A DNA stretch of 64,000 nt from an uncultured Bdellovibrio sp. (lineage in GTDB: Bacteria; Bdellovibrionota; Bdellovibrionia; Bdellovibrionales; Bdellovibrionaceae), in NCBI GenBank assembly GCA_963932905.1, contig CAWVRN010000001.1, positions 288,001-352,000 on the forward strand, in the 5' to 3' direction. Every line of letters starts with the position of its first letter. Position 1 is the stretch's first letter. A model generated the notes under the pieces. The model searched no databases and was not told where the DNA came from. It saw only the letters and a program-made list of their open reading frames with translations. This document shows, one piece after another, positions 29,523 to 64,000 of this stretch. The position numbers were made by a program, and so were the translations under genes.

Positions 29523-30518
29523 ATGACTAAGAAGTACGGTTTTTTGCTGTTCGTATGCTTATTGGTTGCAACGACAGACGCATTTTCTGCCACTTGGAAA
29601 CGCATTTACATTCCGGGGGCTAAATGTGGAAACGGATCTGCGTTCAGTGTATTCGTAAGGCCAAACAGTCCAGATAAGTTGCTTATTGAATTCATGGGTG
29701 GGGGGGCATGCTGGGATCAAGCTAGTTGTCTTTATCGAACTTGGATCTATCCTGTTCCCCAGTTAAACTCGTACGGCGCAATGACCGATCAAACGAATCC
29801 GTTAAATCCGTTTAAGGACAGCTCGACTATCTACATTCCTTATTGTACCGGGGATGTTTACGCGGGAGACTACACCGCGCAGTATTCGATTTCTAAGATC
29901 AACCACTGGGGTCATAAAAACGTAAGACTGGCGTTAGATCACCTTGTGAGATCTAAAATCGTCGATTTTAAAGCTTTTAATGACGTCGCGGTTTTGGGCT
30001 CGTCTGCGGGCGCTATAGGCTCGCTATTGCACGTAAAGTACATTGATGGGCTACTCAAGCCAGAGGCCCGCCGCACGCTTATAGCGGATTCTCCGGGCCT
30101 TCATTTTGGCGCTACGTTCTGGGATCGTTTTGGTACAGAAGCTAGAACTAGCTTTCAAAAGGCATTCGACGAATTAGGGCTCCGCATAGATTTTAATGAC
30201 GGTTTTATTGCACGCAAAATAGCGCCTATTCTTGACAGCTTAACGAACTGGAAAATCGGCTTTTTATATGGTGAGCGTGACGCCATCATGTCTGAGTACT
30301 TTGGACAGATTTCTAAAACCGACTACCAAAATCTATTACTTGGCGCCGAGGGAATTGTTGAAACCAGCAAGCGTTATTCTAATGTTAACGTTTGGCTATC
30401 TGACTCAGACAATCACATTTTCCTATTATTCCAAGACAAATATAATTCTAAATCCGTTGATGGTGTACCGGCTATCGGCTTTGTAAAAAACATTCACGAA
30501 TCAAACCTCGGAAATTAA
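29523..30518 (+). CDS. Secreted pectin acetylesterase-family hydrolase
   Basis: C.NGS, FMGGGACWD, YIPYCTGDV, GSSAGAIG. Confidence 0.88.
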   Translation: MTKKYGFLLFVCLLVATTDAFSATWKRIYIPGAKCGNGSAFSVFVRPNSPDKLLIEFMGGGACWDQASCLYRTWIYPVPQLNSYGAMTDQTNPLNPFKDSSTIYIPYCTGDVYAGDYTAQYSISKINHWGHKNVRLALDHLVRSKIVDFKAFNDVAVLGSSAGAIGSLLHVKYIDGLLKPEARRTLIADSPGLHFGATFWDRFGTEARTSFQKAFDELGLRIDFNDGFIARKIAPILDSLTNWKIGFLYGERDAIMSEYFGQISKTDYQNLLLGAEGIVETSKRYSNVNVWLSDSDNHIFLLFQDKYNSKSVDGVPAIGFVKNIHESNLGN

Positions 30519-54789: not shown

Positions 54790-55584
54790 ATGATGTTAGA
54801 AAATAATTTTCGTAATTATCTTTTTCTTGAACTAAATAAAAGAAAGCAGAATAACTATAGATACTCTTTACGACAGTTTGCAAAATATTTGGGATTAGAG
54901 CCATCATTTCTATCTAAACTTTTGCGTGGAGACCGCAAGTGCACCTTAAATCAAATTGATAAACTTGGCAAAAAACTAGGACTTACCGTGCAAGAAATTG
55001 ATTTTTACAAAGTAAACTCAATTAAAAAAACAGAATATTTAGAAAGGAAAAACAAACGTAAACCTGCCAAGTTCTATAGAATTCCTTTCGACTCAGTGCC
55101 GTTAATTGCAGGCTGGCATTTTTTCGCGATCTTAGAATTATATAGCATGCCCGACGTGGAAATGACTAAAAATCAAATTAGTAGATTTTTTAATATTTCA
55201 GAATTAGAGGCGGAAAACGCTATTCTACATTTAGTCAAACTTGGTCTGCTTGAGGCTAACAATAAAAATAAATTTTATCTAAAAAATGCAAATACCACAA
55301 TTGACCAGCGTCCTTTTACCACAAAAGAACTCAGACAAATCCAAAAACAGTTTTTGCTCAAAAGTATAGACTCACTAGAACAGGATCCCATTGATATTCG
55401 CGATCACTCGGGAATTACACTTGCAATTTCTTCGTCAAAAATTTCTGAAGCTAAAAAACTTATTAAAAACTTTAGGAGACGTTTTATGTCTTTAATGCAA
55501 AATGTTGACCCCAAAGATAGAATATATCAGCTTTCCGTCTCCTTTTATCCTATCTCAAACTTTTTAAGTAGAGGCTCTAAATAG
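54790..55584 (+). CDS. TIGR02147 family protein (Cro/C1 HTH + DUF4423)
   Basis: NYRYSLRQFAKYLGL..S.LS.LLRG.R, WHFFAILEL, RDHSGIT, KKLIKNFRR, YQLSVSFYP. Confidence 0.9.
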   Translation: MMLENNFRNYLFLELNKRKQNNYRYSLRQFAKYLGLEPSFLSKLLRGDRKCTLNQIDKLGKKLGLTVQEIDFYKVNSIKKTEYLERKNKRKPAKFYRIPFDSVPLIAGWHFFAILELYSMPDVEMTKNQISRFFNISELEAENAILHLVKLGLLEANNKNKFYLKNANTTIDQRPFTTKELRQIQKQFLLKSIDSLEQDPIDIRDHSGITLAISSSKISEAKKLIKNFRRRFMSLMQNVDPKDRIYQLSVSFYPISNFLSRGSK

Positions 55585-56424
55585 ATGAAAACATTTTTTC
55601 TTTTTACCATTTTGATTGCTATTTCATTAAAAGCCGGACAAGAAACATGGGGTGGCGACTTTTCTTCGCTTAAGTTCGTAAAAGCTGGAAGAATTTTTGC
55701 CGTCGAAATTCAAAGTACTGCCGATTGTGGGTTGAAAAATATAATTTCGGCGAACAGGTTGCTTGCGACCATTGATAGCACCGAGGTAGAATCTAGTGAT
55801 TCAGAAATAAGTGATTCAAAAGGCCATATCTATTTCCACAAACTAAAATGGGAAGCCGTGACTCAAGAAATGAAGAACGAAGTGGTTCTTCAAAAGTACT
55901 TAGCTCAAGCCGATATCAAAATCTCAGAAAATAAAGCTATTGAATTGGCGAAAACTTGCCGCAAGTCACCCTATTGGTTAAGAAACTCTATTTTATCTCG
56001 TATTAATCGAGTAATTTCAGATGTTGAGCTAAAGGACGACATTCAACATATTTCGCAATTGCTTTTAACTGATTTGAAAAATAAGAAAGTAAAAAATCTT
56101 CCTCCAAAGTTCTCTATTAAGTCCCTCGAAGACGCTATAAACACTATCAAATTACCGAAAAAAAATAATCAGAATTTAATATTGGATTCGAAACCTGTTT
56201 CCTTTCGTTTCCAACATGGAATGCTTAAGGATGGAAAGAACACGAAAGGCCCATTTTATAGAGAAATTACCATCAATAAATCCGTTTGGGCTCATCAAAG
56301 TATAGGACAAAAAAAAGAGTTCCTGTTTCATGAGTATCTTGGACTTTTAAATTTCCGTGATTCCAATTATCAATATTCATCCGTTTTATTTTTTGATTTA
56401 GATGAGGATGACTATAAAAAATAG
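55585..56424 (+). CDS. Secreted protein with GGD N-motif and C-terminal HE motif
   Basis: Signal peptide then GQETWGGD; FHEYLGLL..RDSNYQYS; starts directly after the regulator's stop. Confidence 0.75.
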   Translation: MKTFFLFTILIAISLKAGQETWGGDFSSLKFVKAGRIFAVEIQSTADCGLKNIISANRLLATIDSTEVESSDSEISDSKGHIYFHKLKWEAVTQEMKNEVVLQKYLAQADIKISENKAIELAKTCRKSPYWLRNSILSRINRVISDVELKDDIQHISQLLLTDLKNKKVKNLPPKFSIKSLEDAINTIKLPKKNNQNLILDSKPVSFRFQHGMLKDGKNTKGPFYREITINKSVWAHQSIGQKKEFLFHEYLGLLNFRDSNYQYSSVLFFDLDEDDYKK

Positions 56425-57076
56425 ATCATTATTTTTAAGTATATTTCTATTAGTTTTAATTCAATTTTTGTTTTTATATTTATTCCATGAAAAAAAGATG
56501 GAAAATTGGATTAAAGTAGTTACAAATAATTCGGACCTGCCAATTGATCTCAAATCAGAAGTATTTAGAGCGCTCTTTATTTTGATTAAAGAAGATAGCA
56601 ATCTAAACGTCTCCAAAGAACTTTGCACCAATAGAAAAATGATTCAAAATTTGTTTCAGCTACAACGGATTCCTAAATCTTTATCCGCAATTCCTTATGT
56701 TGAGACAAAATATAGAAACTTAAGTGGAAAAGAAAATGCCGGAATTTGGAATTTTGATATCTATACTTCTCAGATGTATGGGTTGGCTGTGGACAATAGA
56801 ATAGATGAACGGTTGGATTTGAAAAAATCTTCCGAGGTTGCTGTTAAATATCTAAATACGCTTTATGAACTTTTCAAAAATTGGAATTTAGTTATCTTGG
56901 CTTACCGATATGGCGAGGGTCAAATACTTCAACTAGTGCGTAATTACCCGAATCTAGATGCGTGGGAAATCGAATCAAAAATCGGAATGGAAGATAGTTA
57001 TCTTGGACGGGTGCTTGCAGCGATCATTTTCCTTGAAAATATAGAATGTGAACGAGTTAAGGCGAGACCCCACTAG
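56402..57076 (+). CDS. Lytic transglycosylase, MltD-like catalytic domain without LysM
   Basis: IPYVET, NAGIWNF, YGL, IDERLD, KYL..LY..F.NW.L...AY..GEG. Confidence 0.85.
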   Translation: MRMTIKNRSLFLSIFLLVLIQFLFLYLFHEKKMENWIKVVTNNSDLPIDLKSEVFRALFILIKEDSNLNVSKELCTNRKMIQNLFQLQRIPKSLSAIPYVETKYRNLSGKENAGIWNFDIYTSQMYGLAVDNRIDERLDLKKSSEVAVKYLNTLYELFKNWNLVILAYRYGEGQILQLVRNYPNLDAWEIESKIGMEDSYLGRVLAAIIFLENIECERVKARPH

Positions 57077-58835
57077 CTCCGATATCCCATGGGCTACTTC
57101 TTGTGATTCCTTGGATATCTGAAATAAAAGCAAAATTAGCATCTGCTGATAGATCGACACCGCGACCCTTAGCTGAAACATCCGTCAATCTCAATCGGTA
57201 GTCGTCAGAAGACGCATTCATAAAATGAACACTAGCACTAACAACGTCGTTTGTACTCGAAGAAGAAAAATAAGTGAAGACTGTATTAGCAAGATTATAA
57301 TCTCCTACGAATGAATCATAGTAGGAATAGGCGTTAGCAGTCGCCCCTTGAACGATATTATTTTTGGCAATAGCAGGTCCGTAAAAAATCACTCCTTCAT
57401 TGGCAGTCAAAATCGTATTGTTATAAAACACTGTCGTAGAATTTAAAACAAGAGTAGTACCGGGATTCGATGCATTATTAACCCCATAGAAGATGCTATT
57501 AGAAATAAAATTTCTAAAATTTATGTTTCCCCCACTATTGACATATATGGCATTGATTGCACCGCCTATAAAAGTAGAAACAGTCCGAGTAACTATGCAT
57601 GAATCGAAATAGAATGTTCCTGCTGCTGTACTAGCCGCAACCCGAACCACTTCAACTCCGGAATCGATTCCTTGAGAAATCTTAATACCTTCAACACGTA
57701 CATCTTCAGAATTAACATTTAGAGTCGGGTAATACGACGAAGTTGTATTACTCAGTTCATAACCTCCGCTTGCCCAAAAACCTTGATGCCGCTGACTTTG
57801 TCCAGCCTCAAATAAATTATTCGGAGCAAAAATTTTAATATAATGAGAATTGTTAGTAACCCAATTGGCTAGATCTACGTTAGTGTTATCAGTAGCGTCA
57901 GCGTAGCCAGCAAAATTGTAAATTAGGTTGCCTGCCACTAAATCCGTCCCCGTAGTTCGAGTGTCAAAGTTAGCAAGCGAAGCACAACTTAAATTACATG
58001 ACGCACCGGAAAGGATACCCGTATTCTCGGTTCCACTTTGAGCATCACTTAATGATGTATAGGCGCGATAAACCTTCCACGTCAGGCTAGGAGCAGTAGT
58101 TCCGATGGCGGATCCTCCATTGGAAGTTTGTAGATAGAACCTATTGCTATCTAATCGTACTGAAATAAACCCTATAGCGTCGTAAAGCCCGTCGTTATCT
58201 GAATCGTATTGAACAACATCACCAACACCGATGTTACTAGGCAAATTTTCTTGAAATGAAGCAATGGAGTTTTGAATAGAAATACTAGTTATTCCTCCAC
58301 TAGCCAACGCTGATATGTTCGATGGCCCAATAGATCTAAATACTGAGATAGGTCCATTATCATTATCCAATATTTTAATAGCGTGCGACGCTATACCTAG
58401 GACTTCATTCGTACTAGAGTTAAGTGTTAAGATAAGTTCTTCCCAAGGTTCTATATCGGAATCATCTACAATTTGAATTGATATCTGTGCTGCTAAATGT
58501 CCGGCAGGTATCACGATCGGGCTCGATAGGCTTGCTATTACATCCCCTGGAGTTCCGGCAGATCCCTTTGTAGAAAGATCAACACTTACATCGACGTCAC
58601 TAATTTGGGAAAGACTGACCTGCACAATGGTGGTGCCACTTGCTTCGTTTACGACCTGTGCAATGTTTGAAAAACTAACCGTAGGCTTTGAAGGAGTTGG
58701 AGTATTCGAACCTGGAGGAAGTTCCCTAGATGTTACATGGGTGGGATTAAGTCGCTCAATACGCGCATCTAAGAAACACCCGGACAATAGACTCAATAAC
58801 ACTATTTGAAGAATTATATACCCGTATCGAATCAT
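57057..58835 (-). CDS. Surface lipoprotein: Calx-beta domain + beta-helix + DIGA-type C-terminus
   Basis: LSGC lipobox; VNEASG...IVDDSDIEPWEELILTL...ILDND; NNTI/KNNI repeats; DIQGITRSSPWDIGA. Confidence 0.8.
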   Translation of the reverse strand: MIRYGYIILQIVLLSLLSGCFLDARIERLNPTHVTSRELPPGSNTPTPSKPTVSFSNIAQVVNEASGTTIVQVSLSQISDVDVSVDLSTKGSAGTPGDVIASLSSPIVIPAGHLAAQISIQIVDDSDIEPWEELILTLNSSTNEVLGIASHAIKILDNDNGPISVFRSIGPSNISALASGGITSISIQNSIASFQENLPSNIGVGDVVQYDSDNDGLYDAIGFISVRLDSNRFYLQTSNGGSAIGTTAPSLTWKVYRAYTSLSDAQSGTENTGILSGASCNLSCASLANFDTRTTGTDLVAGNLIYNFAGYADATDNTNVDLANWVTNNSHYIKIFAPNNLFEAGQSQRHQGFWASGGYELSNTTSSYYPTLNVNSEDVRVEGIKISQGIDSGVEVVRVAASTAAGTFYFDSCIVTRTVSTFIGGAINAIYVNSGGNINFRNFISNSIFYGVNNASNPGTTLVLNSTTVFYNNTILTANEGVIFYGPAIAKNNIVQGATANAYSYYDSFVGDYNLANTVFTYFSSSSTNDVVSASVHFMNASSDDYRLRLTDVSAKGRGVDLSADANFAFISDIQGITRSSPWDIGASGVSP

Positions 58836-60342: not shown

Positions 60343-60625
60343 GAGGATAGGCAGTTCAAAGGCCGAATCGTTAAAGTCTAACATCTATGTTGGCCTTCAT
60401 TGTTGTTAAAGTTGTGTGATTGGAATGGGTCGTTGGCAAGGAATTTCACTAATTTTTGAAATTTGTGACGTACTTTTGATTTACCACGGTTGTTTTTGTT
60501 GGTCCACGGGCTGGATAAAGTGGCGGCGGTTTAGTGGCAAGGTCCATATGCTTAAGGATTTTTCGAATCACTTTGGGAGCTTCGATGGCGGCAATGATTT
60601 TCATGTTTCCAGAACATGATTGCCA
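60343..60625 (-). mobile_element. IS91/ISCR-family remnant: transposase C-terminus plus oriIS end
   Basis: Minus strand 60616-60449 reads CSGNMKIIAAIEAPKVIRKILKHMDLATKPPPLYPARGP; downstream GCCTTTGAACTGCCTATCCTC (60363-60343) resembles ISCR oriIS. Confidence 0.8.
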
Positions 60626-60676
60626 TTGTTGTTCTACCTGTACCTATGGACAAAAAAATGGACTCATGGACAAGGG

Positions 60677-60946
60677 TCACGTTACAGAATGTTTGGATTT
60701 TAGAGTTTGGTAGCACAAGTCGCATATAATCTGAAGTTCATGGAATTTTTCAAACTCCACAGTGAGGCCTTTCTCTTTAAGGTACATCACTTCACATTGC
60801 TCGCACCATGCCTGAAGATCATTTGGATCATCATTGTTTTCTATGAAACCAACAATCTTGTCTTGCGCCTGTACAAGATGGGAACAAACCGCGCAGCCTA
60901 ATCTTTTGCCATGTGTTCCACAAACAATAATCAATTTAGAATTCAT
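60677..60946 (-). CDS. Small Cys/His-rich (putative Zn-binding) protein
   Basis: GAGGGG RBS before MNSK; CGTHG, VCSHL, AWCEQCE, ICDLCY. Confidence 0.75.
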   Translation of the reverse strand: MNSKLIIVCGTHGKRLGCAVCSHLVQAQDKIVGFIENNDDPNDLQAWCEQCEVMYLKEKGLTVEFEKFHELQIICDLCYQTLKSKHSVT

Positions 60947-61172
60947 TACTATTGCCCCTCTCAATAGAAGTATCCCATGTTTTAGACTTAGTTCAACACT
61001 CCAATCTCCGAGAACCGGAGGCATTTTTATGACGCGTTTTGCGACCGACGTGGCTTGTTCTTTAAACTCTTTTTGAGTTAATATTATTGAACTGCAACAC
61101 GAGAACATTGGGTTATGATGCAGCACCCATTTATCAATAGGAAAAATAAATGTTAAATATTTGGAAGTTTTA

Positions 61173-61532
61173 ATGAAAATTTTAATTTGTTCTTTATTCT
61201 TAGCTCAAATTTCTTTTGCCCAGATGTCCATCGAAACTGTGAGTGAAGTTGGTGTAACTATTGAGGCAAGTCCAAATTCAACTTTTGTAATTAAAAAGGT
61301 ACAACCGGCTTCTCCAGCCTTCAATGCGGGTTTGAAGGAGAATGACCTGATTACTTCCGTGAAGAGAGATTCAAATTCGGAACCTATTCAGATTGCAGAA
61401 AAATCTTTAGAAGAAGTCGTAAATTTACTTAAGGGTCCAAAAGGATCTTTATTGGCACTTGAACTTCTGAGACATCCAGCTAAGGATTTGAAAAAAGTAA
61501 CTCTTGTTCGAAGTGATACTTTGAAGAAGTAA
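61173..61532 (+). CDS. Secreted single-PDZ protein
   Basis: Signal peptide, VGV, SPAFNAGLKENDLITSV, VNLLKGPKGS. Confidence 0.85.
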   Translation: MKILICSLFLAQISFAQMSIETVSEVGVTIEASPNSTFVIKKVQPASPAFNAGLKENDLITSVKRDSNSEPIQIAEKSLEEVVNLLKGPKGSLLALELLRHPAKDLKKVTLVRSDTLKK

Positions 61533-61699
61533 TAAAATACGCCTTAGAACCACTAGTTTGAATTTCAATTCCTCGAATAAAATGCTCTGCAAATCAGAGT
61601 TTTTTTAATGGTGATTTTAAAAATCTTTCTTGATATTTATGCTCGAACCCATGACCAAAACTCCTCGCATTTCTGACCCTTGTTCAGAAAACCCCAAGC

Positions 61700-61935
61700 C
61701 CTACCAGACGCCTACCAAAATCCTACCAAATTATGAAATATCCAGAAATTTCTAGAAATACTGAACCAAAAACACTGATTGGCTAACGCTTTATTTTGAT
61801 TTGAGATTTTTTATTTTTGAAAAAATGATTGTGATAAATGGCGGAGAGGGAAAATACTATTTCCCAAGTTTTTAACTCGTTGAAAGTCTTCATCATTTCT
61901 TACCCGCATAACTAATCTGTAGTAAGTTGTAGCAA
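61700..61935. repeat. att site 1: CCTACCA x3 - GAAAT x3 - 16-bp tRNA-Ser-end core - IHF-like site - TGTAGYAA x2
   Basis: CCTACCA at 61700/61711/61722; GAAAT at 61735/61745/61755; TAAATGGCGGAGAGGG at 61835-61850; TAACTCGTTGAAA at 61873-61885; TGTAGYAA at 61918/61928. Confidence 0.85.
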
Positions 61936-62116
61936 GAAACTGTTTATTGGTGTGATGGCAAAGTCTGCGCGCCTGTTTCATAGCTATTGCTGAATGTTGT
62001 AAGCGCACTGATAACGACATACTCAGTCGGGTTGTCGTCCCTGGAGTTTGGACAACGCAAGTTGTTGAATACATCGAAAAATTTGAAACTGCGATCTGGT
62101 CAATAAAGCTACGGCG

Positions 62117-62165
62117 TCCCCAGCAAGTCCCACGGTAAATCCCTAGAATGTCCCCTGTGTTTCCC
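62117..62165. repeat. Five helically phased TCCC repeats
   Basis: TCCC at 62117, 62128, 62140, 62151, 62162. Confidence 0.55.
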
Positions 62166-62385
62166 CGCGATTTCTGAGGCTCGGGCGGCACCCTTCCTGA
62201 CCGCTAGGTCACAACTCTGTTTTTCGCCTCATTTAAGGGGACCACCTATTTTCTAAAGGTCACTGTAGGGCTGCGCTCATTGCAAGGGGCGGCGTCTTCA
62301 ACGCTGTATTAAAAGGTTTATGGTTTTCTGAAGGGCTGGATGAAAAATAGCATTTGGTTTTGTCCAGTTTTGGCAGCAGGTTGTT

Positions 62386-62401
62386 TGGCAAAGTGATTGC
62401 A
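62386..62401 (+). promoter_or_regulatory. Sigma54-type promoter
   Basis: TGGCAAAGTGATTGCA, canonical -24/-12 spacing, 13 nt before the ATG. Confidence 0.7.
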
Positions 62402-62414
62402 TTATTAATTAGCG

Positions 62415-63335
62415 ATGATTGTTAAATTGAATAAGCTCTTTATTACTGCTTTTATTTCTTTGTGGTGTTTACCAATTTTTGGTAGTGAAACTCACTTTCC
62501 TCTTACAATGGTAAATGAGCTAAGCGCGGCTAAAAAACAAGGACTACAAAAGCTTCTCAATGTATCATTTGGGGCCGAATTTGATGGGTTCTCTTGCTCA
62601 GGAACATTTATAAATAATCAGGGTATGTTCTTAACCGCGGATCATTGTATTAAGTCCTGTTTTTTGGGTGAAAACGATGATCAATATACAGACTATAGAA
62701 GCTTTAATCGACGTGATCTAGGCCCGGCTCAGTGGTTAAACTTTCGCCGATTTTATCCTAACCGTGTACCAGAAAATATTACCTGTGAAACGGTTATTAA
62801 TGGTGAGACTAAAAAATCGAAACTTGTTGTCGCTAGTAATGGAAGGCTAAACCCTTATTTTCCAAAGCAACTTGAGGCACCTGATCTTATCGAAAAGTAT
62901 AAAGAATTTGTTGAATCAGGTGCAGGATGGCCTACTGGAGATTTCGCAATCTTGGAGCTCACAGATAAACCCAAAACCAATTGCCTGCAGCTGGGAAATC
63001 GCCTTCCAAGCAAAGGCGAAACAATTCAGTCTATTTCATTTCCCTTAATGAACTTGAACGAACGGATTCCATTTTATTCGTCTGGTGTTTTACTTGACGA
63101 GGAGAAGAGCGAACCTAACTCATTTGTTTCAACCGTTGATGCAGAGACAGGATCAAGTGGAGCAAGTCTAATTGGAGAAGATGGGAAAATTTTAGGTGTA
63201 GTAAGTATTGTCGTCGACATTCGCGACCCAGTGGCAAAAATAAAAAAAACTCTCAAAGTCACAAGTGTTCTTGGTATATTGAAATCGATCCGCGAAACAT
63301 TAGGATATGATATCATTTGCAAAACTGAACAATAA
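62415..63335 (+). CDS. Secreted trypsin-like serine protease
   Basis: Signal peptide; CSGTFI, LTADHCI (His), GDFAIL (Asp), TGSSGASL (Ser). Confidence 0.92.
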   Translation: MIVKLNKLFITAFISLWCLPIFGSETHFPLTMVNELSAAKKQGLQKLLNVSFGAEFDGFSCSGTFINNQGMFLTADHCIKSCFLGENDDQYTDYRSFNRRDLGPAQWLNFRRFYPNRVPENITCETVINGETKKSKLVVASNGRLNPYFPKQLEAPDLIEKYKEFVESGAGWPTGDFAILELTDKPKTNCLQLGNRLPSKGETIQSISFPLMNLNERIPFYSSGVLLDEEKSEPNSFVSTVDAETGSSGASLIGEDGKILGVVSIVVDIRDPVAKIKKTLKVTSVLGILKSIRETLGYDIICKTEQ

Positions 63336-63527
63336 CCCTTCTTCTGGGACCAAAAAGCGATCATAGTTTTACAAATCTTTGTGGACATTAAATTTTTTCG
63401 TCCCAGAATCAATTTTCCAAAAATTCTTAAAATTTTAGATGTCCATTAACGGGGACGCTTTTGAAAATCGAACAAGAATAGTTCAAGACGACCGAGTATT
63501 GCTAAAGTTACGCCATAGAAAAATCTG

Positions 63528-63778
63528 TGTAGCAAAAGTTGTAGTAATCTGTAGCAAGATTTTGAAATGAGCAGAAATACCCGGAAATATTCTGAACCCC
63601 GAGTCAAACCGGGGACGTCTTCAAACAAGTATTTTCAAACACTTGAATCATTTAAAAATTTTTGATTTTAATTTCAGGGACTTGATTTTTCGAGACACTA
63701 AATGGCGGAGAGGGCGTTTGTGGTGTAAGCGCTTGATATAATTGATCTCCATTTTTGTACCCTACCAATTCCTACCAA
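63528..63778. repeat. att site 2: TGTAGYAA x3 - GAAAT x3 - 16-bp core - IHF site - CCTACCAA x2
   Basis: TGTAGYAA at 63528/63540/63550; GAAAT at 63564/63574/63584; core at 63699-63714; TAAGCGCTTGATA at 63726-63738; CCTACCAA at 63761/63771. Confidence 0.85.
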
Positions 63779-63909
63779 CCGAAATGGACAAGTCGTTTTT
63801 CAAAATTATAATGTGACCCCCGTAATGGGTACCCAATGGCAGAAATACTTATTTTGAAATACTGTGGTTTTAATATTTATTCTAATAGTTTAGCCTCATT
63901 TGCTTGATG

Positions 63910-63989
63910 GTCGGTAAAGCCAACTTACCGACGAATAACCTACATCAAACCCCTGGATGACCCCTGGCGAATCTACGGGAAATCTGCGG
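63910..63989. repeat. Inverted repeat plus 11-bp-phased repeats at the start of the next element
   Basis: GTCGGTAA-7 nt-TTACCGAC (63910-63932); CCCCTGG at 63950/63961, TCTRCGG at 63972/63983. Confidence 0.55.
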
Positions 63990-64000
63990 TAATGAATAGG

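Follow-up and report, generated by a model that had tools for sequence, protein, structure and literature searches.

Probable chimeric attachment sites with exchanged arm codes in a tandem array of integrase-less units at a Bdellovibrio tRNA-Ser gene

Introduction

What process leaves two copies of one short sequence close together, each with phased repeats on both sides, and with the left and right repeat classes exchanged between the two? Sites S1 and S2, which pose this question, lie near the right-hand end of a 64,000-nucleotide stretch of DNA from an uncultured Bdellovibrio sp. (hereafter the window; C1:288001-352000, where C1 is contig CAWVRN010000001.1 of assembly GCA_963932905.1, here G000). 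A first-pass annotation, made from the letters of the window, had described them as attachment (att) sites of lambda type, S1 as A3-X3-core-B2 and S2 as B3-X3-core-A2, where A and B are two classes of arm repeat, X is an excisionase-type (Xis-type) repeat and the numerals count the copies. Our analysis indicates that S1 and S2 are, very probably, chimeric attachment sites that form internal junctions in a tandem array, built by repeated site-specific integration at one tRNA-Ser gene.

The G000 assembly (4.55 Mb in 58 contigs, 98.6% complete) was compared with 182 genomes of the same family (the relatives below) and, for the combined A3 and GAAAT pattern, with one-genome-per-species public collections. 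Public read data were the Logan contigs of four groundwater runs, and the tRNA genes of G000 were called with ARAGORN. Public records with the same motifs are labelled almost all Bdellovibrionales, Bdellovibrionaceae or Pseudobdellovibrionaceae.

Results

Two sites with exchanged arms around one core

Direct reading and pattern searches place every element of the described layout at its position in both sites (Table 1). From left to right, each comprises three arm repeats, three GAAAT motifs, CTGAACC, a 16-nt core and two arm repeats of the other class, class A being CCTACCA and class B TGTAGYAA (as TGTAGTAA or TGTAGCAA). We refer to the side with three arm repeats and the GAAAT motifs as the P arm and to the side with two as the P' arm. 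The 16-mer core has two copies in the window against 0.03 expected, and 0 of 100 shuffles reached two. CCTACCA has 237 copies in the genome, yet it forms clusters of at least two at just three places, all of them att arms. Exact 7-mer triplets with 9-13-bp spacing are found at 15 places genome-wide, four of which are arm sets of this element family, and the strict pattern of three GAAAT motifs has six genome matches, every one in a P arm adjoining a core. Cores, arm repeats of both classes, GAAAT motifs and spacing all go well beyond chance. At S2 the distance from core to A2 is 46 bp, matching the A-class integrase loci of relatives (47 bp at L039).

The exact 12-mer TGGCGGAGAGGG occurs at four places in the genome, two of them beyond S1 and S2, and all four are bordered by the same modules. 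Left of S1, the window holds no further core within two mismatches except a chance-level match at 30341. Alignment of nine junctions gives TGGCGG in all nine, TGGCGGA in eight and a following G in most. The overlap region of tyrosine recombinases is usually seven bases. All three tRNA-Ser genes found in G000 (TGA, GCT and GGA; no tRNA-Ser(CGA) was found in the assembly) have TGGCGGAG as their 3' end, of which TGGCGGA(G) is the reverse complement, and all terminate in CTCCGCCA. The annotation had read the core as a tRNA-Ser end, and this holds for the short end that the three genes share.

A P arm adjoins each of these genes. It is of B type at tRNA-Ser(TGA), whose 3' end is abutted by a copy of the L module described below (at C1:280515), of a third type, C, at tRNA-Ser(GCT), and of GTAGCA type at tRNA-Ser(GGA). 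At the last gene, the 3' end and a phased pair of GTAGCA repeats (C13:3,740-4,033) are some 200 bp apart, so that none of the three tRNA-Ser genes found is unoccupied. Elsewhere, at C3:32,908-33,110, three GTAGCAA repeats with 11-bp phasing lie about 150 bp from a partial tRNA-Met copy (the 3' ~52 nt), so a related element appears to use another tRNA and a long core.

A tandem array that ends in a conjugative element

Read toward the tRNA gene, the array consists of an A-type P-arm end, S1, the B unit (1.87 kb), S2, the A unit (1.77 kb), a further junction termed S6, a 36-kb conjugative element and tRNA-Ser(GCT), which anchors the array 38 kb outside the window. The stacking of units that the annotation had proposed is thus seen as an array of chimeric junctions anchored on this gene. 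Over 297 bp, the A-type P-arm module left of S1 has 85% identity with C1:353178-353482, a segment directly adjoining the integrase junction of the conjugative element. The cargo of the A unit is one 314-aa open reading frame (ORF; L002:195-1139) with no Pfam match.

The 36-kb unit right of S6 carries integrase, excisionase and transfer genes between two att sites and is, judged by this gene content, an integrative conjugative element (ICE). Right of S6 stand, in order, two GTAGCCA repeats, a 377-aa tyrosine integrase reading toward the core and an HTH_17 excisionase-like ORF. They are followed, again in order, by genes for a Replic_Relax-family protein at threshold (25.5 versus 25.3 bits), an FtsK-like ATPase (FtsK_SpoIIIE), TrbI, CagX, TraC/VirB4 (TraC/P-loop_TraG) and TrbC, the CagX and TrbC matches being below the Pfam cut-off. 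The two GTAGCCA repeats form the P' arm of its arm code, C; the far end has phased GTAGCCA x3 and GTGAT x3, with some 150 bp between them and the tRNA-Ser(GCT) 3' end (C1:389902). In G172, another species of the same genus, the ends of the ICE are 100% identical over 1500 bp on the right and 1232 bp on the left, the identity starting at TGGCGGA. The G172 chromosome beyond the tRNA is just 80% identical to that of G000, and the left neighbour of the ICE differs. Identical ends within a diverged chromosome, next to a different neighbour, mark the ICE as discrete and recently transferred.

Arm codes follow the N-terminal domain of the integrase

Both P-arm types recur among the relatives, the B3-X3 segment at 17 places in 14 other genomes and the A3-X3 segment at about 28 places in 23, with diverging flanks in each case. 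A distance of 100-130 bp separates these P arms from the 3' ends of genuine tRNA-Ser genes, and three GAAAT motifs at 10-bp spacing are kept in A and B alike. In the public collections the exact A3 and GAAAT pattern occurs at 35 places, almost all in Bdellovibrionales-type genomes. On its right it abuts an intact tRNA in 17 cases (Ser in 12; Pro, Arg, Asp, Met and Val in one each), and the remaining cases are three A/B hybrids, one A/A site and 14 other partners. Two relatives link the arms to integrases directly. In G102, A3-X3-core-A2 is followed by a 371-aa integrase (A class); in G173, A3-X3-core-B2, the same hybrid as S1, is followed by a 375-aa integrase (B class), and this P(A)-core-P'(B) hybrid is also present in G174. 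The G102 and G173 integrases are 49% identical and their upstream excisionase-like ORFs 50%.

An A-class integrase query matched 95 of the 182 genomes at E <= 1e-40. We surveyed the sequence just 3' of the stop codon at the 30 best integrase loci, which include near-duplicates (L039-41, L056/57 and L060/63). Eleven have CCTACCA x2 and six have TGTAGCAA x2; the others have GTAGCAA-like repeats (seven), GAAGCA x2 (four), GTAGTC x2 (one) or nothing obvious (one). The N-terminal ~56 residues of the integrases track the arm class, and the rest of the protein does so less. Identity of these residues is 70% within A and 87% within B, versus 38% between A and B, while the corresponding values for the rest of the protein are 61%, 73% and 52%. 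All 17 integrases beside A2 or B2 arms (11 and 6 loci) have the matching N-domain class, an association that supports the view of two arm codes on one shared core and Xis-type site. In a tree of the N-domains, A forms one clade (support 0.988) and B another (0.967). The tree of the remaining 312 columns requires two changes for A and at least two for B, and in it one B-class protein pairs with a GAAGCA-class protein (96/87 support), which suggests some exchange of N-domains between backbones.

The integrases match Pfam Phage_integrase with E values of about 1e-21 to 1e-23, and Arm-DNA-bind_4 matches the N-domain at 17-20 bits, below its cut-off of 22.3. In an AlphaFold model, the B-class N-terminus is folded into three strands and one helix (pLDDT 91), the arrangement given for arm-binding domains in an excerpt of PMC8138268. 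HTH_17 ORFs lie upstream of int_1 and int_2 in G000, and the small ORFs upstream of intA and intB are 38-51% identical to them. The three GAAAT motifs are likely the site of the small helix-turn-helix excisionase encoded upstream of each integrase. Phased arm repeats in sets of three and two, a shared core, a tyrosine integrase and an excisionase-like ORF upstream of it agree with the lambda-type architecture that had been recognised in the window.

That annotation had also placed a site resembling that of integration host factor (IHF) after each core. The IHF consensus is WATCAANNNNTTR. Its only exact match near a core lies right of S2 (63726-63738, minus strand); beside S1 there is, by eye, a one-mismatch match only (61873-61885, minus strand). 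This part of the description is weak, the window total of eight matches against 7.6 expected being at chance level.

The small units lack an integrase

The B unit lies between S1 and S2 and the A unit between S2 and S6, and both are without integration or transfer genes. No A- or B-class integrase is found in G000, the best match being the ICE integrase at 34-35% identity; six of nine other genus members have a homologue at least 42% identical. The units cannot therefore excise on their own in this genome. They also contain no integrase remnant, as judged by tblastn with 10 integrases (best E 0.11). In an excerpt of PMC5704250, a cis-mobilizable element (CIME) is an element flanked by att sites and without integration or transfer genes, a decay product of an ICE or of an integrative mobilizable element (IME). 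The A and B units, on their gene content, are non-autonomous and resemble CIMEs.

No excision product was seen in the Logan contigs. The joint 63698 to 61835 (L-core-R) is present in contigs of three runs, and was set aside as evidence of a circle because it is expected from the chromosomal junction at C1:283,020, which is about 93% alike on the L side. A joint from 61855 to 63537 was disregarded, its sides being only 22 nt. No Logan contig joins 61834 to 63715, and contigs cannot show absence.

Conserved borders and variable cargo of the B unit

The B unit has the order core-R-cargo-L-core and is present in three complete copies in G000, with different cargo in each. Its R module consists of the P' arm and conserved non-coding DNA upstream of the cargo, and its L module contains the P arm. 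In BLAST searches against the genome, R copies 96-98% identical were found at C1:283035-282509 and C16:56257-56780; the L copies have 91-94% identity across some 385 bp and 92-96% within the final 315 bp. The conserved borders of the three units lie about 20-160 bp from the cargo ORFs. In the window the cargo is a serine peptidase gene, followed at the start of the L module by a hairpin (63342-63408). The other two G000 units carry TetR with a SnoaL-like protein, beside tRNA-Ser(TGA), and a GNAT acetyltransferase, on C16.

The R module is present in just four of the 182 family genomes, and is 81% identical in G075 and 67% in G174. The six R-bearing units of four genomes have unrelated cargo: the protease, TetR with SnoaL, GNAT, DUF4423, an ISL3 transposase and an alpha/beta hydrolase. 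No ORF within R is conserved across the four genomes. The possibility that R is an integrase remnant was discarded, tblastn with the 10 integrases giving nothing better than the E value above, as was that of a structured RNA in its 3' part (single-sequence z-score +1.24, covariation term unfavourable). Rfam gave only a chance-level Termite-leu match (E 1) on 60500-64000. The 3' part of R may be a promoter or leader. It is conserved (62125-62375, 230-250 bp) in G157 too, where the arm part is not alignable. As a whole, the B unit looks like a leader-cargo-terminator cassette between two att halves, as far as its sequence can tell.

Both other loci with B units are composite. A second array, in inverted orientation, lies at tRNA-Ser(TGA), 66 kb from the sites in the window (C1:280,433-284,500; L001), and holds the B unit with TetR and the SnoaL-like protein and a diverged B-like unit with a 255-aa adhesin-like ORF and a distal core that is not recognisable. 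On C16 (53,600-59,700; L003), a B-type P arm, AAATGGCGG, a 2.2-kb two-gene segment and a core are followed by the B unit with GNAT, a core, a 406-aa integrase (int_2), HTH_17 and a relaxase. By eye, a 0.9-kb one-gene segment in G075 has ends similar to those of the 2.2-kb segment, which suggests another unit type. The arm code of int_2 was not found, and a search for a shared 7-mer with TGGCGG gave nothing convincing for the right end of its element. At the start of the P' side of this element, the core forms part of a 13-bp inverted repeat, ATGGCGGATTCGT ... ACGAATCCGCCAT (C16:58,069), and the repeat is kept in three other genomes adjoining A-type P arms (L088, L116 and L037).

Two further features lie left of S1 in the window. 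A 3.3-kb block (54806-58079) encodes a DUF4423/HTH protein, an unknown ORF, an SLT transglycosylase and the start of a Calx-beta protein, and has a 66%-identical paralogous block at C17:85922-89214; both the C16 locus and the G075 unit have DUF4423 proteins among their cargo as well. Short non-coding repeats at 60343-60497 and 60521-60611 have 76-80% copies at two places on C4 and on C32, and a similar stretch is seen by eye near a B2 arm in G174 (L033).

Table 1. Features of the two sites, the array and its repeated modules. Positions without a contig name are those of the window.
Feature	Position	Strand	Remarks
A-type P-arm module left of S1	61553-61834 (61553-61849 with part of the core)		right end of the leftward unit
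S1 A3 arm, CCTACCA x3	61700, 61711, 61722 (span 61700-61728)		11-bp spacing; direct reading and pattern searches
S1 GAAAT x3	61735, 61745, 61755 (span 61735-61759)		10-bp spacing
S1 CTGAACC	61761-61767		
S1 core, TAAATGGCGGAGAGGG (16 nt)	61835-61850	-	mimics the tRNA-Ser 3' end on the minus strand
S1 likely 7-bp crossover, TGGCGGA	61839-61845		
R module	61835-62361 including the core		61851-62361 is the P' arm with B2, then a conserved non-coding stretch of ~430 bp ahead of the cargo
S1 B2 arm	61918 (TGTAGTAA), 61928 (TGTAGCAA) (span 61918-61935)		
B-unit cargo gene	62415-63335	+	306-aa trypsin-like serine peptidase; Pfam Trypsin_2, E 3.5e-11
L module	63315-63710 including part of the core (P arm 63315-63698)		B3, GAAAT x3, CTGAACC
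S2 B3 arm	63528 (TGTAGCAA), 63540 (TGTAGTAA), 63550 (TGTAGCAA) (span 63528-63557)		spacing 12 and 10
S2 GAAAT x3	63564, 63574, 63584 (span 63564-63588)		
S2 CTGAACC	63592-63598		
S2 core (16 nt)	63699-63714	-	same as S1 core; TGGCGGA at 63703-63709
A unit start, P' arm	63715-64000		unit continues beyond the window to C1:353,470
S2 A2 arm, CCTACCA x2	63761, 63771 (span 63761-63777)		
Promoter-like site in A unit start	63785-63812		
S6	C1 ~353,470		P(A), core, P'(C)-int; A-type P arm C1:353,333-353,470
Conjugative element (ICE)	C1:353,470-389,902		36 kb, outside the window (L002, L069, L070)
Right-hand array junction	C1:389,902		P(C), core, tRNA-Ser(GCT)
Further TGGCGGAGAGGG copy	C1:283020	-	
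Further TGGCGGAGAGGG copy	C16:56257		
L module copy	C1:280908-280515		
L module copy	C16:53637-54020		
L module copy	C16:57699-58078		

Discussion

Origin of the array and routes of excision

We propose that the attP of each incoming element consisted of a P arm (three arm sites, then three GAAAT motifs), the core and a P' arm (two arm sites), and that the element would have recombined through the 7-bp TGGCGGA at the tRNA 3' end. Each core would then have the P arm of the older neighbour to its left and the P' arm of the newcomer to its right, because successive integrations at the tRNA-proximal core produce that arrangement. S1 would be P(A)-core-P'(B) and S2 P(B)-core-P'(A), and the swap between them would be the signature of an A, B, A order of arrival, followed by the C-type conjugative element. 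The arm motifs would dock the N-terminal domain of the integrase, with A and B as two specificities within one family.

Movement of the A and B units would require Xis and an integrase of either class to be provided in trans. With B-class Int and Xis, S1 would act as attL (P' arm) and S2 as attR (P arm and GAAAT), and the products would be a circle with B3-X3-core-B2 and, left behind, A3-X3-core-A2. The annotation had foreseen the latter as a complete attP-like site, and A3-X3-core-A2 does adjoin an integrase in relatives (L030, L114). By symmetry, the roles would be reversed for A-class Int, with S1 serving as attR, S2 as attL and both products unchanged, so that excision of the B unit would not be strictly private to the B code; the suggested independence of excision would be qualified to that extent. 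The ICE has different arm (GTAGCCA) and Xis-type (GTGAT) repeats and so probably leaves the small units alone.

Observations that weigh against this origin, and alternatives

Several observations weigh against this origin. For the unit left of S1, neither a distal core nor an A2 arm is recognisable in the window, which leaves the array without a defined far border. The GC profile gives no clear island edge, and comparison of the left flank of tRNA-Ser(GCT) in four genus relatives gave no empty site from which the far border could be set, the flank being occupied in G172 and G178, unlike G000 save for a 58-bp repeat in G170, and at a contig end in G171. The full 12-nt CCCTCTCCGCCA is not the end of any tRNA in the assembly; the local tRNA-Ser genes match it over 8-9 nt. 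Fold searches with the N-domain model singled out no arm-binding domain: Foldseek returned nothing at E <= 0.001, with the arm domain of the HPI integrase (3jtz) at rank 48 (E 1.8), and the best VIA-align Z score was 5.4, to unrelated small beta-alpha folds (4.6 for a GCC-box domain). The assembly is a 58-contig draft, probably metagenome-derived, in which the L and R modules are repeated, and the contiguity of S1 and S2 is not confirmable from public contigs. Finally, three B units have the same R and L borders around unrelated cargo. Independent decay of full elements does not easily explain such borders, and no pseudogene remnants of decay are present.

This last point leads to the alternative that survives best, in which the small units belong to a dedicated cassette platform at tRNA-Ser and are moved in trans by ICE integrases with the matching arm code. 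The units would then be no decayed leftovers but expression cassettes for single genes, each with P' arm, conserved leader, cargo, terminator and P arm, similar in function to integron cassettes but made of lambda-type attP halves. We consider this possible but doubtful. Closely similar borders at nearly fixed distances from the cargo, the unrelated cargo of the six R-bearing units and the lack of integrase remnants are all as it would predict, and the units stand at two tRNA-Ser genes and a third locus. In addition, 18 of the 35 A-type P arms are internal junctions rather than tRNA-adjacent. The cognate integrase, however, is absent from G000, the R module is confined to four of the 182 family genomes, one cargo is a transposase that may be a later insertion, and public contigs revealed no circle, empty site or strain polymorphism for a single cassette. 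We know of no mechanism that would swap cargo between fixed R and L ends.

The draft state of the assembly raises a different concern, that the swapped arms are an artefact in which a short-read metagenome assembler joined A- and B-type elements through the shared core or the repeated modules. L and R are 400-530-bp repeats at 91-98% identity, and among the 32 of 74 contig pieces listed, none spans S1 or S2. The copies nevertheless differ by 2-9%, enough for an assembler to separate them; the P(A)-core-P'(B) hybrid was assembled independently in G173, G174 and a third genome; and S6 obeys the same logic, the identity of the ICE to G172 starting at the S6 core. We therefore think such an artefact very improbable. 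That the phased repeats are operator or iteron arrays for a regulator or replication protein, with a coincidental tRNA-like core, is hardly credible: phased direct repeats do occur in such arrays, but here, in dozens of genomes, they keep a constant distance to tRNA 3' ends and follow immediately 3' of integrase genes, their class follows the integrase N-domain, and they mark the exact ends of a 36-kb element that is 100% shared with another species.

Implications

Considered together, these data are consistent with repeated integration at one tRNA-Ser and with one integrase family that re-uses the tRNA-Ser 3' crossover and alters only the arm-site specificity of its N-domain. Because the crossover is shared and the arm specificity changed, elements could share a landing pad and yet be handled by different integrases. 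With repeats at 29 of the 30 loci, N-domains paired with their probable DNA sites offer raw material for decoding, and perhaps re-programming, arm recognition. In a predatory group with little described mobile DNA, the integrase-less single-gene units, whose cargo includes a protease, an acetyltransferase, a hydrolase and regulators, build up at tRNA-Ser genes and may be a route for the exchange of accessory genes.

More speculatively, Bdellovibrio-like bacteria might have a cassette system made of lambda-type att halves, in which integrase-less single-gene units gather at tRNA-Ser genes and are served in trans by the integrases of visiting ICEs, with at least six orthogonal arm codes (CCTACCA, TGTAGYAA, GTAGCCA, GTAGCAA, GAAGCA and GTAGTC), one 7-bp crossover and N-domain exchange as the source of codes. 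We hold this wider proposal to be unlikely as it stands, though not negligible. Should the units turn out to move in trans, they would parallel integron cassettes in function, with an origin in a different recombination system.

Comparison with known systems

Tandem accretion with chimeric att sites is of an already known kind. Excerpts of PMC5704250 describe site-specific accretion and a "chimerical attI" between tandem elements, with tandems of ICESt1/ICESt3 type and a composite island at tRNA-Lys of Streptococcus agalactiae. As in CIMEs and accretion, integrase-less units with both att sites stand here in tandem with a functional-looking ICE at a tRNA 3' end, and the internal junctions combine the arms of two elements. 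In contrast to described CIMEs, the units belong to the phylum Bdellovibrionota, measure 1.8-2.5 kb and hold one or two genes; three copies share non-coding ends around different cargo, the genome lacks a cognate integrase, and in the resident ICE both the arm code (a third one) and the Xis-type repeat (GTGAT) are different. A limited check of titles and abstract openings on ICEs, integrases and tRNA in Bdellovibrio gave no paper about such elements, which does not establish that they are undescribed. Within that check, the lineage, the clear pairing of arm code and N-domain on a shared core and the cassette-like units appear to be new.

Integron cassettes likewise form arrays of small, mostly single-gene, recombinase-less units, each ending in a recombination site, with variable cargo between conserved recombination sequences. 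Unlike integrons, the array described here has no attC hairpins and no IntI/attI platform. None of the 10 tyrosine recombinases lies at an attI-like array head, and the junctions are not imperfect palindromes. The sites are double-stranded lambda-type arms of about 250-900 bp, the array is anchored at a tRNA gene, and the units appear to carry their own conserved upstream leader.

A close parallel to the sites themselves is the attP of phage lambda, whose tyrosine integrase is heterobivalent. It also has arm repeats on both sides of a short core and has Xis sites where three phased sites adjoin the inner P-arm repeat here. As in lambda, int reads toward the P' arm, a small excisionase gene lies upstream and the N-terminal domain, as modelled for the B class, has three strands and a helix. 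Unlike in lambda, the core is a tRNA-Ser 3' end and the arm sites are all direct repeats in one orientation (three and two). The excisionase is of HTH_17 type, the IHF sites are at chance level, and the integrases are family-level relatives only (Pfam Phage_integrase). The integrases of lambda and HK022 have arm sites in common and recognise different cores. The A and B classes are likewise related integrases that differ in one of two DNA-binding functions, but the relation is reversed: core and Xis-type site are common to both classes, and the arm sites set them apart.

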